DNA of 36,452 bases. Origin: a virus. Taxonomy: Duplodnaviria; Heunggongvirae; Uroviricota; Caudoviricetes. Made by a program: the position numbers and the translations under genes. The notes beneath the pieces are model-generated. The model was given only the letters and a program-made list of their open reading frames with translations. It was not told the DNA's origin and made no database searches. Below, piece by piece: positions 25,522 through 30,013 of the stretch; position 1 is the stretch's first letter, and each line of letters opens with the position of its first letter. Location of the stretch: the IMG/VR virus record IMGVR_UViG_2711768063_000002. One strand, written 5' to 3'.

Positions 25522-25655
25522 ACACCCCGTCAGCACGCCCTCACACGCTCACCTCCGCGCAAAACAGCCCGCAGACACACCAACGCCTCAACGGGCAGAC
25601 TAAGCGCCGTCACGACGCGCTGAAAAAATAAAATCAGCACCACCGCCAGCGCGCA

Positions 25656-25674
25656 GTGCTTTCCCCGCCTCGCC
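25656..25674. other. cos site (19-nt cohesive-end sequence, present here as GTGCTTTCCCCGCCTCGCC)
   Basis: Reverse complement GGCGAGGCGGGGAAAGCAC matches the P2 cohesive end as I recall it; located just beyond Q, as in P2. Confidence 0.6.
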
Positions 25675-25770
25675 CGCCCGCTTCATGGGTCGGTTTTGAT
25701 GCAAATGTATAAGCCAGGCGAAAGCACGTCAGTTTTGAGCTCATTTGTATGAAAGGCCAAATAATAGCAA

Positions 25771-25800
25771 ATGCAATTTGATGCAATTTGATGCAATAAT
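25771..25800. repeat. Three tandem 10-bp repeats (ATGCAATTTG, ATGCAATTTG, ATGCAATAAT) upstream of the FRG-domain gene
   Basis: Two perfect and one imperfect direct repeat on a one-helical-turn register, about 140 bp upstream of the 25943 start. Confidence 0.5.
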
Positions 25801-25942
25801 GTACGCAAAACTACCTTCCCACAGAGTCAAACATAGACTGACAGTTTTCTCTGGTAGTGCTGAATCAGATCTGGCAATCTACATCGCCCTTACGACAACA
25901 TTAAGACAATCAATGTCATTTCTTAAGTAAAAAGGAGTTAGA

Positions 25943-27298
25943 ATGTTTAATCTCATTATCGGGGGTGAGCCCTCTGTGTTTGATAGATGGCCATCTATGG
26001 ATCCTAATATTAAAAATGGGGAAGATAGTTTCTCTCTTTCCCGAATGCTAGAAGGTACACCATCCTTACTTTATAAAAAATTAACACCAGTAAGCCCTAT
26101 AACTTTAGACGCTCTATCTAAGCTACCTGTTCTTTTCATGACTGAAATATACGATAAAGACGGTGACAAAAATAGATATTTAAGAGTAAGACTTGGAAAA
26201 GTCGGCAACTTACACATAGATAATGATGATGTTTGTTATCACTTTGAAATCGTTCATGATTTTGGCGAAATCAAGAACCCCGAAATAAAAAAATATAAAG
26301 AAATATTAGACTTAGGTGCTTATGGTCTTAGCAGAACCCACTGGGCAGTTAAAGATAAAAAATTAAGAGAAACACTGCTAAAACTTGAGCTAAATAAAAC
26401 CAAAAACGATACAACTGAAAAAATTCTCTCTAACACCTCCAAAATTGGAAACATCAAAAGAACATCAAAAATAAGAAAAATAAAGAGCTTAAAGGAATAT
26501 ATCAGTTTTATAGAAAAATCCAACAATTCAAACTCTGAAATTTTTTATAGAGGACATTCACGAAATAAATATGAACTTATCCCATCTCTTTTCCGGAAAC
26601 ATGATAACGGGACTCATAAGCACCTTGATTCAGAATCATCTATGGTTCGTGAAATTCTGTCAGCAAGGCCTAATGAATTTATATCTGATAATTTTACGAT
26701 CGATAAATTAGTTAGAATGCAGCATTATGGTTTACCTACAAGATTGCTAGATATTACATCCAACCCGCTAATTGCTTTATATTTTGCATGCTGTGAAGAT
26801 CCTGAAGACACCGGACAAGTCATCTCGTTTCCTACAGAAAGAAAAAATATCAAATATTTTGACTCTGATACTGTTAGCTGTATAGCCAATCTGGCATTTA
26901 TGCCACACAATATCTTAAGCACTATATCAAAAAGCTTAATTGAAAACGACAAATCTCACGCAAAAGAACTACTCAATAAACTTTTAGATCATATTCAAGC
27001 TGAAAAACCATATTTTAAAAAAAATATAGACCTGCATGATCTTCGGAAAATACTATTCATCCGCGCCAGAATAAATAATGAACGCATTCAATCACAGTCT
27101 GGCGCATTTCTATTATTTGGTCACGAGGCAGTACTCCCAGAGACAACAGAAGACTTTCCTCTTGACAGAGTTGACATAATTAATAAAAAAATAATCTTGA
27201 AAGAACTTGCACAATTGAACATTACTGAGAGCACTGTTTATCCAAGTATAGAAAAGACAGCTTCTGAAATCGCAAAGAAATATATGTCTGACATTTAA
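25943..27298 (+). CDS. FRG-domain protein with an uncharacterised N-terminal domain (451 aa); candidate phage-defence cargo at the tin/old position
   Basis: SD AGGAG 5 nt before the ATG. The C-terminal half carries what I recognise as FRG-domain signature segments: IFYRGHSRNKYELIPSLFR, VRMQHYGLPTRLLDITSNPLIALYFAC, RIQSQSGAFLLFG. The N-terminal 190 aa is Lys-rich with no motif I can name. Very A+T-rich and convergent with the downstream minus-strand genes. Confidence 0.8.
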   Translation: MFNLIIGGEPSVFDRWPSMDPNIKNGEDSFSLSRMLEGTPSLLYKKLTPVSPITLDALSKLPVLFMTEIYDKDGDKNRYLRVRLGKVGNLHIDNDDVCYHFEIVHDFGEIKNPEIKKYKEILDLGAYGLSRTHWAVKDKKLRETLLKLELNKTKNDTTEKILSNTSKIGNIKRTSKIRKIKSLKEYISFIEKSNNSNSEIFYRGHSRNKYELIPSLFRKHDNGTHKHLDSESSMVREILSARPNEFISDNFTIDKLVRMQHYGLPTRLLDITSNPLIALYFACCEDPEDTGQVISFPTERKNIKYFDSDTVSCIANLAFMPHNILSTISKSLIENDKSHAKELLNKLLDHIQAEKPYFKKNIDLHDLRKILFIRARINNERIQSQSGAFLLFGHEAVLPETTEDFPLDRVDIINKKIILKELAQLNITESTVYPSIEKTASEIAKKYMSDI

Positions 27299-27443
27299 AA
27301 GAAATATTACAATTGTGCGTAAGAATCAGACATAACGATATTTTGACTCTTTACCACATGGTGAGCACAGGCCTCTTGGATACGTATCCTTCAAAAAGGC
27401 TATGAACCTTAACTTTATTAATTGTAGTTTGAACTGACGCTGT

Positions 27444-28311: not shown

Positions 28312-28345
28312 TTAAATCGACTCCTTATCAATTTACCCAAATCAT

Positions 28346-28366
28346 AAAAAAGCCATATTATGGCTT
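28346..28366 (-). terminator. Weak intrinsic terminator-like hairpin between the 243-aa and 198-aa ORFs
   Basis: Minus-strand read AAGCCAT-AAT-ATGGCTT followed by TTTTATGAT; the 7-bp A/T-containing stem makes this marginal. Confidence 0.3.
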
Positions 28367-28393
28367 AAACATAACATGGCCTAGCCCTTCACT

Positions 28394-29125
28394 TTAGTTA
28401 TCAATTATTGAAGTTACCTCACCAGTTCGAACATTGACGCGCGCCGCAACGGTCTGTTTCACCACTCCGCCATAAGCATTAGTTCCGCGAAATGTTGTTT
28501 TCACAATGGCGTGCGGATCTTTATTCAAAACCAAATGATACACTGTTGACACATGTTTATAAGATGAATCATCGTTCATATTCTCTTTAATTAGCTTTTC
28601 CAATGGTCGGTAAGAACCATCCCAACCGCTAAAATTACTCTGAAATGTATCAAGGTTGATTTTATTGTTTAGTGATTTCGGATCTTTTTCATAATCATTA
28701 AAGCACCATCCAAGAACATCACCGAGTTTCAACTCATCATCTTTGGTAAAAGTATATTCACTCATGCAGGCATAAAATGCATCTGATGCGGTGACTGGCA
28801 CTTCCTTAAAATCAATATAACTATTCACAATATCGTGTCGAGTTTTCTTTGGCTCGTTCCGATATTCCTTGAGTGTTTTTCCACCATATTCGAATTTTTT
28901 TTGGACTTGGTGTTCTGCAACGGTTGATGTTTCAGTTTTAGCAACTGGCTGGCTTTTTTCTGTTGGATAGAGTATTGAACCAATTATGCTCAATACAAAA
29001 CCTCCTCCGAGATAAACCGCACTTGCACGTTTACGGTTTGGCATCCGCACCAGTGATGGTTTGATTAATCCGATGAAAAAAGCAACGAAAAAAGCGAGTG
29101 ATAGAAAAGCGATTACAGTATCCAT
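28394..29125 (-). CDS. Membrane-anchored hypothetical protein (243 aa from the ATG at 29125; the track's 251-aa frame starts at a GTG)
   Basis: ATG at 29123-29125 with SD AAGGA 5 nt upstream; two N-terminal hydrophobic helices (VIAFLSLAFFVAFFIGLI and AVYLGGGFVLSIIGSILY) then a soluble domain of about 180 aa; A+T-rich. Confidence 0.7.
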   Translation of the reverse strand: MDTVIAFLSLAFFVAFFIGLIKPSLVRMPNRKRASAVYLGGGFVLSIIGSILYPTEKSQPVAKTETSTVAEHQVQKKFEYGGKTLKEYRNEPKKTRHDIVNSYIDFKEVPVTASDAFYACMSEYTFTKDDELKLGDVLGWCFNDYEKDPKSLNNKINLDTFQSNFSGWDGSYRPLEKLIKENMNDDSSYKHVSTVYHLVLNKDPHAIVKTTFRGTNAYGGVVKQTVAARVNVRTGEVTSIIDN

Positions 29126-29560
29126 AGCTATCCTTTTTGCATCATCCACATAAAAAATCGACCTTATGTTAGCAACAGGAAGCTTACTTTTGAATATTTG
29201 TAAGTTGTTAGCTTTAGCTCTCCGAGCTAACTCCTTTCAACCGTCAAAAACCAGCACCAACGCAGTAAAAATATTACTGTCAACTAACGCCTCGCTTCGC
29301 TCGTTGTTCAACCCCGCCAGCCCTGAAAACAAGTTTCACGACTGGCGGCGTTCTCTATCGTCTGCGTGGTGGTGGCATAACTCTGGATTGACCGATATGG
29401 TTAAACCGCCCGTAATTATCCCGGACTATTTCGGCACACCCGACCAGCTCATCGGGCGTCAGATTTTCGTTGACCATAATCTGCTGCAAACGCTGAACAA
29501 TAGCCATCAGCTTGATATTTTTAGTTTTATGGTGCGGTATCTCACCTGGTATTCTGTGCA

Positions 29561-30013
29561 TTATCCAAGCCACCCGTTTTGCTGTGCACGCTCAATCTGT
29601 TCATCTGAATAGTTCCATGCTCCATCCGTGGCAACCATTGCCCCGCCAGACATCCCCGTCTCTGGTTCATACATAACAGCAAGGCCGAGCTGATGCATAA
29701 TTTCATGATTAATTCTGAATACCAGACCACGCTCACTAAGTTCTTTCCAGTTCACAATCTCACATGCGCCTGTATTAAGCCGCTCAATACTTAGCAAGAC
29801 ATAATCTTCCAGCCAGTCTGACAGGTCAGTAACATCTGTTATCTGGGCTTCAACCTTTCGCCCCGTATACACACCCTGCACCCATTCATGCAAAATCAAC
29901 GTGTCCCCGCGCTCATAATTACGGTCATTTTTCCGAAGCTCTGCGCGTTTCTTTCCTTCCAGCACAAGGTCAAAATATTTTGCGTGCAGCTTTACCTCGT
30001 GAATTTTTGCCAT
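29561..30013 (-). CDS. ASCH/DUF3850-like domain protein (150 aa), translationally coupled to A
   Basis: ATG at 30011-30013 overlaps the A stop by 1 nt (TAATG); N-terminal MAKIHEVKLHAKYFDLVLEGKKRAELRKNDRNYERGDTLILHEW resembles DUF3850/ASCH proteins; the track's upstream extension starts at a GTG. Confidence 0.65.
   Translation of the reverse strand: MAKIHEVKLHAKYFDLVLEGKKRAELRKNDRNYERGDTLILHEWVQGVYTGRKVEAQITDVTDLSDWLEDYVLLSIERLNTGACEIVNWKELSERGLVFRINHEIMHQLGLAVMYEPETGMSGGAMVATDGAWNYSDEQIERAQQNGWLG

Follow-up and report, generated by a model that had tools for sequence, protein, structure and literature searches.

The closest described counterparts of the locus analysed here lie in phages related to P2, in which the gpA-gpQ region adjoining the cohesive-end site (cos) is a hotspot of diversity, with 1,650 arrangements among 18,150 E. 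coli loci and with old and tin of P2 as the founding example of its cargo (Rousset et al. 2022, PMC9122126). Table S5A of the same study lists the proteins WP_053263919 through WP_053263923 as 'FRG + hypothetical x3 + DUF3850/ASCH', an arrangement that was catalogued outside the systems cloned and tested there (PMC9122126). These five proteins are encoded between cos and gene A in IMG/VR virus record IMGVR_UViG_2711768063_000002, a stretch of 36,452 nucleotides (referred to as the window) that is as a whole a P2-like (Peduovirus) prophage, oriented in reverse relative to the standard P2 map. The interval is known gpA-gpQ hotspot cargo in an already catalogued arrangement, and in that sense nothing categorically new. 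Three single-gene modules of low G+C content (GC), each mobile independently of the others, make up the mosaic at its core, which is not an operon or multi-gene system, and this variable cargo locus probably serves the lysogen against incoming phages.

Like the old-tin locus of P2, the cargo occupies the slot between cos/Q and A and has a low GC (tin 0.33 and old 0.35, versus 0.32-0.39 in the three cargo genes here), and its FRG-domain gene is oriented as the P2 old-tin operon, which is transcribed towards A from a promoter ~150 nt from cos. The difference lies in the entire gene content. An earlier note made from the DNA alone had stated that none of the products corresponds to Tin or Old, and the best BLASTP match to these two P2 proteins indeed had an E-value of 0.19; among the five products, P2 was matched only by residues 1-74 of the Orf91-type protein (94.6% to P2 Orf91). 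P, Q, cos, A and the early genes downstream of A were all identified around the cargo. In RefSeq, the annotation of an identical prophage in E. coli A37 (100% identity across 25700-29200) counts five genes between cos and A, in the order FRG-domain protein, hypothetical proteins of 198, 243 and 68 amino acids (aa), and DUF3850 protein. The features, with the cargo listed before its flanks, are as follows.

25711-27609, plus strand: module 1, comprising the FRG gene together with the upstream region and the terminator that belong to it, in the cos-proximal slot that is old's in P2
25943-27298, plus strand: FRG-domain protein, 451 aa, WP_053263919
25943-26410, plus strand: N-terminal domain of the FRG protein, approximately residues 1-156
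26447-27286, plus strand: FRG / ADP-ribosyltransferase (ART)-like region, residues 169-448
27444-27476, plus strand: intrinsic terminator of the FRG gene, with a hairpin of 11 bp and then TTTTT (fold z-score -2.97)
27715-28311, minus strand: h198, a 198-aa soluble protein, WP_053263920, the stand-alone module 2
28344-28382, minus strand: intrinsic terminator of Orf97, between Orf97 and h198, a 12-13-bp hairpin followed by UUUUUU
28394-29125, minus strand: Orf97 homologue, 243 aa, WP_053263921, module 3
29355-29561, minus strand: semi-conserved 68-aa hypothetical protein (h68), WP_053263922, phrog_11386, GC 0.47
29561-30013, minus strand: Orf91-type DUF3850/ASCH and DUF7415 protein, WP_053263923, backbone-proximal, GC 0.47
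22658-24460, plus strand: terminase gene P
24460-25494, plus strand: portal gene Q, part of the backbone
25500-25515, plus strand: intrinsic terminator of Q, a 6-bp all-G:C stem followed by TTTTTT, part of the backbone and outside the island
25656-25674, no strand: cos, the 19-nt P2 cohesive-end sequence, an exact match to the reverse complement of GGCGAGGCGGGGAAAGCAC
30013-32298, minus strand: replication gene A

The earlier note had described the interval as an A+T-rich island of four genes between cos and A. A sharp compositional block is real, but only ~25,750 to 29,200 is strongly A+T-rich, with GC of 0.28-0.42 in 200-bp windows against 0.52-0.64 in Q and its terminator and 0.53-0.55 in A; in 500-bp windows the mean was 0.34 inside the block versus 0.52 (standard deviation 0.06) outside, the outside set including two other A+T-rich loci. 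The placement between cos and A was borne out as well, although the proposed start at 25,522 falls 134 nt to the Q side of cos. Rather than four A+T-rich open reading frames (ORFs) there are three: the FRG gene (GC 0.333, GC at third codon positions (GC3) 0.27), h198 (0.323 and 0.24) and Orf97 (0.385 and 0.32). These are joined by two semi-conserved genes of intermediate composition, the 68-aa ORF and Orf91, which occupy 29,200-30,012 (GC 0.46-0.52) and have GC3 values of 0.46-0.51, bringing the total to five. The Lys/Asn/Ile-heavy usage that the note had reported amounts to 26%, 22% and 20% of residues in the FRG protein, h198 and Orf97, respectively, versus 13-18% in the backbone genes P, Q and A (GC 0.54-0.57, GC3 0.55-0.70), and the composition differs strongly from that of the backbone. 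In other genomes, too, the FRG gene had a GC below that of its flanks in 66 of the 74 loci analysed. Transcription is convergent, as claimed, with FRG on the plus strand and the other genes on the minus strand; of the separate terminators that had been attributed to these units, those of FRG and Orf97 are canonical hairpins with a T-run, but h198 is followed only by a weak A+T hairpin.

The evidence for a mosaic comes from pairwise comparison of loci, which placed module boundaries at ~25707, 27610, 28400, 29282 and 29793. On the left, homology with other P2-like and 186-like loci stops at 25703-25710. The FRG segment is missing from the 186-like Salmonella prophage L004, which shares 27610-29175 (h198 and Orf97) at 78.6% DNA identity. 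Phages 9W and P24A7b have sequence in common from 28398/28416 rightwards (Orf97, 68-aa ORF, Orf91 and A) and carry unrelated 232-aa genes in place of FRG and h198. Wphi and many other P2-like phages, which also possess the 68-aa ORF, are shared from 29282, and reference P2 from 29793 only. Each of the three cargo genes also occurs apart from the others. In E. coli 2009C-3133 the sole A+T-rich cargo is a homologue of h198; in the Enterobacter loci L008 and L010 no gene but such a homologue separates A from the portal gene, and in Salmonella it follows Orf97 without FRG. In phage 186, Orf97 follows tum without either FRG or h198; and a 48%-identical FRG paralogue, oriented alike, occupies this slot in L017-L020 and faces a retron reverse transcriptase, a 62%-identical FRG homologue being located beside colicin and microcin genes in Klebsiella. 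Alternative cargos at the locus were seen in 9W, P24A7b, P2, L017 and L023. No direct or inverted repeats that would mark a transposon or integron-like cassette were found at the flanks in a repeat search.

The semi-conserved genes next to A are mosaic in their own right. Orf91, which matched the Pfam families DUF3850 (4.6e-18), DUF7415 (2.2e-14) and ASCH (7.5e-11), is chimeric with respect to P2, in that residues 1-74 (ASCH/DUF3850) match P2 and the C-terminal DUF7415 part, common to Wphi-type phages, is absent from reference P2; this places a point of recombination within Orf91, close to 29793. The 68-aa ORF lies between Orf91 and Orf97 here, unlike in Salmonella L004, where its homologue (6835-7115, corresponding to window positions 29284-29561 at 75% DNA identity) is located downstream of h198, indicating that small semi-conserved genes are also shuffled within the hotspot. 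As for the 232-aa genes of 9W and P24A7b, these differ from each other (266-964, minus strand, in L002 and 143-841, minus strand, in L003; GC 0.34 and 0.37), and inspection of their translations by eye revealed hydrophobic N-terminal stretches, so their products may be membrane proteins.

Prevalence was determined in 5426 complete E. coli genomes. While the Q/cos flank was found in 2150 of these, the segment of Orf91 and the 68-aa ORF occurred in 404 (at least 90% DNA identity), Orf97 in 84, the present h198 allele in 7 and a 73%-identical h198 allele in 21; the full FRG+h198+Orf97 block was carried by 7. The block is therefore far from core, and the earlier proposal of horizontally acquired cargo at a recombination hotspot agrees with the documented variable locus of P2 and with the same arrangement in Table S5A of Rousset et al.

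The largest of the three cargo genes encodes a two-domain protein. Its C-terminal part matched Pfam FRG (PF08867) at 81.5 bits against a cut-off of 25 (residues 199-288), as well as the PADLOC single-gene candidate PDC-S15 (PDLC04936 at 7.8e-98, residues 169-448). The likeness to PDC-S15 consists of an FRG domain well above threshold in a solitary gene; the best PDC-S15 models align only from residue ~159, however, leaving the N-terminal ~150 aa unmatched. More than 3,800 FRG homologues were detected in one search and at least 564 species-level loci in another, and the two-domain architecture of ~445-460 aa is kept across Proteobacteria. Among 80 species-level loci, the FRG gene had no conserved neighbour, and h198 was never nearby.

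The Aravind group assigned Frg, a predicted NADase or immune effector, to the ADP-ribosyltransferase superfamily (PMC9503650), and we searched the conserved positions for the ART catalytic triad of R/H, S/Y and E. In 40 FRG sequences, R203-G204-H205 is invariant within a strand (FYRGH) and the stretch DKLVRMQHYGLPTRLLD is mostly so, followed by a near-invariant T272-S273, which comes after an RLLDI strand, and by an invariant N274-P275; further invariants are S308-D309, E354-K355, N379, R381, S384, Q385 and G387. The AlphaFold2 (AF2) model had a predicted local distance difference test score (pLDDT) of 86.1 and a predicted template-modelling score of 0.84. Foldseek returned nothing significant for the FRG protein against the PDB, where sequence and profile searches likewise found no match for FRG or h198, and none of the five island proteins matched NCBIfam. 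An anti-phage role of the FRG protein is considered somewhat more likely than not.

The region upstream of the FRG gene, which forms part of the cargo itself, contains a tandem 10-nt repeat at 25773-25802 on the plus strand, ~140 nt upstream of the start codon, in which two copies of GCAATTTGAT are followed by a degenerate copy GCAATAATGT. This repeat may serve as an operator or as an element of a promoter.

The N-terminal domain is marked by the motifs LSRxxExT, LPxLFMxE and RTHWA[IV]K. The copies of Pfam, NCBIfam and PADLOC that were searched contained no model for this domain, which on its own matched no PADLOC model, and residues 1-198 matched nothing in Pfam at E-values up to 0.1, giving no sign of sequence membership in EVE, YTH or ASCH. 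A search of 1.8 billion representatives with residues 1-165 yielded 73 proteins, and Pfam and PADLOC scans of these revealed the domain fused not only to FRG, but also to a CAP12/Pycsar-type TIR (PADLOC PDC-S35), to Abi_C, matching the C-terminal part of AbiJ, and to a Ser/Thr kinase resembling PD-T4-6 and mad6. A module that is joined to one or another of several defence effectors bears the hallmark of a domain for sensing or ligand binding, and this pattern suggests that the FRG protein is a sensor-effector protein. Type IV restriction enzymes with their EVE/YTH/SRA-like readers and CBASS/Pycsar effectors likewise combine an N-terminal module with interchangeable effectors, but Pfam and PDB profile searches gave no sequence-level link between these sensor-effector immunity families and the N-domain: its profile found no related PDB sequence, and the isolated domain gave only chance-level PDB matches (E >= 0.078). 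Its best structural matches included EVE/YTH readers, the VcaM4I reader-nuclease and McrB N-terminal domains, all at weak similarity. Structural match scores of the AF2 model were low for the FRG protein, and both fold assignments are to be read as leads only.

Orf97 has an annotated relative. It is 79% identical to coliphage 186 Orf97 over residues 1-243 (phrog_3403, 2.8e-145), and the 186 GenBank record (U32222) annotates orf97 with the note 'expression from plasmid blocks 186 infection'. In 186, orf97 is the second gene of the LexA-controlled p95 tum-orf97 operon (U32222), which is used for induction. As in 186, Orf97 is oriented as gene A at the right genome end with a terminator after it; in contrast to 186, it is here located after Orf91 and the 68-aa ORF, with h198 and FRG between Orf97 and cos. 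The family is restricted to Enterobacterales and their phages. Pfam scans of its members gave noise only, and PDB searches stayed at chance level (E >= 0.078). Hydrophobic segments at residues 1-22 and 34-54, separated by a loop with five K/R, precede a C-terminal domain of ~190 aa that holds the only two Cys of the protein, both invariant. This layout fits a two-pass inner-membrane protein with a periplasmic C-terminal domain, and is the one that a superinfection-exclusion protein working at the stage of DNA entry would be predicted to have.

The remaining module, h198, is one of a family of ~198-aa stand-alone proteins for which no Pfam, NCBIfam or PADLOC model was found, scans of all family members returning noise; a few distant relatives touch Pfam DUF7717. 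Its AF2 model is confident (pLDDT 88.7) and resembles HEPN bundles modestly, with an extra small beta-sheet. R48, E52, H131, P135 and H163 are invariant and N134 is near-invariant in 45 homologues, in which no conserved Rx4-6H motif was present, and no HEPN Pfam family appeared among the h198 matches at E-values up to 5. Compared with the MNT-HEPN toxins (7ae2, 5yep), AbiJ and AbiV, residues R48, E52, H131, N134 and H163 of h198 fit no known HEPN signature. A HEPN-like abortive-infection nuclease would be a low-confidence assignment, and a metal-binding helical-bundle enzyme is an equally open one.

All three proteins are inferred to act in the lysogen against incoming phages. The N-terminal domain of the FRG protein (~150 aa, possibly a PUA-like barrel) would sense that infection is under way, for instance by binding a nucleotide or nucleic acid, and then switch on the C-terminal FRG domain. 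Through consumption of NAD+ or ADP-ribosylation of a target, that domain would bring about abortive infection; this mechanism is put forward tentatively. Orf97 would, as an inner-membrane protein with a periplasmic domain, keep out superinfecting phages of the 186/P2 type when their DNA enters or close to that step, a role that we regard as rather likely by analogy with the 186 homologue. As modelled, h198 might be a stand-alone soluble helical bundle that may act in abortive infection as a divergent, HEPN-like nuclease, but this last assignment is doubtful. The most far-reaching version combines these points: the N-domain would be an undescribed, possibly PUA-like sensor module serving at least four effector chemistries (FRG/ART, TIR, AbiJ-type HEPN and Ser/Thr kinase), the prophage FRG protein a single-chain receptor for a nucleotide or modified nucleic acid that triggers NAD+-dependent abortive infection, and h198 a second, unrecognised single-gene defence. 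Taken jointly, as one package, this is speculative.

Several observations weigh against a defensive cargo. No phenotype is on record for any of these alleles, and a literature search found no FRG defence phenotype, PDC-S15 being a candidate class only. At the position of the ART catalytic Glu there is apparently an invariant Gln (Q385), as judged from sequence and secondary structure with no superposition. The consensus scan predicted no strong sigma-70 promoter upstream of the FRG gene on the plus strand. No tum or DinI-like gene was found between A and Orf97, nor any LexA-box match with one mismatch or fewer in the region upstream of Orf97 (29126-29354), and the regulation of Orf97 consequently differs from that in 186. 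Moreover, about one quarter of the cargos at the P2 hotspot have functions unrelated to defence and include, for example, partition systems and toxins (PMC9122126).

That sizeable non-defensive share of the hotspot would accommodate a cargo in which Orf97 belongs to an induction programme, the FRG protein is an NAD-dependent competition toxin or addiction module, and h198 is a regulator. The place of 186 orf97 in an induction operon would agree with such roles, as would the position of the Klebsiella FRG homologue next to bacteriocin genes. The sole reported Orf97 phenotype is exclusion of 186, however, the N-domain partners (TIR, AbiJ-type, PD-T4-6-like kinase and CBASS cyclase) are all defence-associated, and other P2-like phages carry validated systems in the slot that old-tin occupies in P2. 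We consider a non-defensive cargo unlikely.

For the FRG protein alone, the main rival to a self-contained sensor-effector is an orphan effector of CBASS/Pycsar type, with an N-domain that binds a cyclic (oligo)nucleotide made by a host-encoded cyclase elsewhere. The CBASS cyclase among the N-domain partners occurs in the 760-aa protein P0366, in which a complete CBASS oligonucleotide cyclase (residues 1-307; PADLOC Cyclase 1.1e-112) is joined in one chain to the N-domain (327-445) and FRG (478-750), and in P0352 and P0380 the N-domain precedes the CAP12/Pycsar-type TIR, the usual position of a ligand-binding domain in such effectors. Yet P0366 is a single cluster representative, of which a scan of genome contigs found no relatives, and it is either a CBASS in a single chain, with FRG as its effector, or two neighbouring cyclase and effector genes merged by gene calling. 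Nor was a cyclase present in the island or hotspot, or detected by tblastn in the 80 species-level loci at a distance of up to 6 kb from the FRG gene. The absence of a cyclase rejects a CBASS operon at the island itself, and an orphan second-messenger effector appears improbable.

A single two-gene system of FRG and the convergent h198, such as a toxin/antidote or sensor/effector pair, is very improbable: although the genes are adjacent and the present h198 allele was found only with the present FRG allele (7 complete E. coli genomes), the idea is largely refuted by distribution, with h198 lacking FRG in E. coli 2009C-3133, Enterobacter and Salmonella, FRG homologues in 80 species without h198 nearby, and a Salmonella homology block (27610-29175) that ends exactly between the two genes, which moreover have separate Shine-Dalgarno sequences, with FRG using its own terminator.

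The 416-bp convergent gap between FRG and h198 contains a 73-aa ORF (27326-27547, minus strand) that is probably no gene. It overlaps the FRG terminator hairpin, is unannotated in RefSeq, and gave no PHROG match and only a sub-threshold Pfam hit to zf-HIT (E 0.022). An Rfam scan of 25400-30100 at E-values up to 1 returned nothing but a chance match to Giardia RNase MRP, which at 20.9 bits fell short of the gathering score of 60.

Elsewhere in the window, a second A+T-rich locus (8602-9912, plus strand; GC ~0.36-0.43) lies in the P2 Z/fun slot between a tail sheath gene (7047-8237, minus strand) and a tail-fibre assembly gene (10098-10625, minus strand). It encodes a 436-aa Ser/Thr kinase with a full-length match to PADLOC PD-T4-6 (2e-174) and a match to Pfam Pkinase (3.8e-22). 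A third A+T-rich insert (15457-16242, plus strand; GC ~0.36) carries a 261-aa ORF without a Pfam or PADLOC match, oriented oppositely to the flanking tail genes (14738-15391 and 16314-16766, both minus strand), at what we take to be the P2 orf30 slot.

For the P2-like phages, the three compact single-gene modules between cos and A are reasonable leads for the discovery of defence systems, given that about one third of the cloned systems from this hotspot showed activity against phages. Of these leads, we regard the FRG protein as the most useful, since its domain is widespread and predicted to be an NAD-utilising effector, and the swapping of its N-terminal domain among effectors provides a testable sensor-effector hypothesis.

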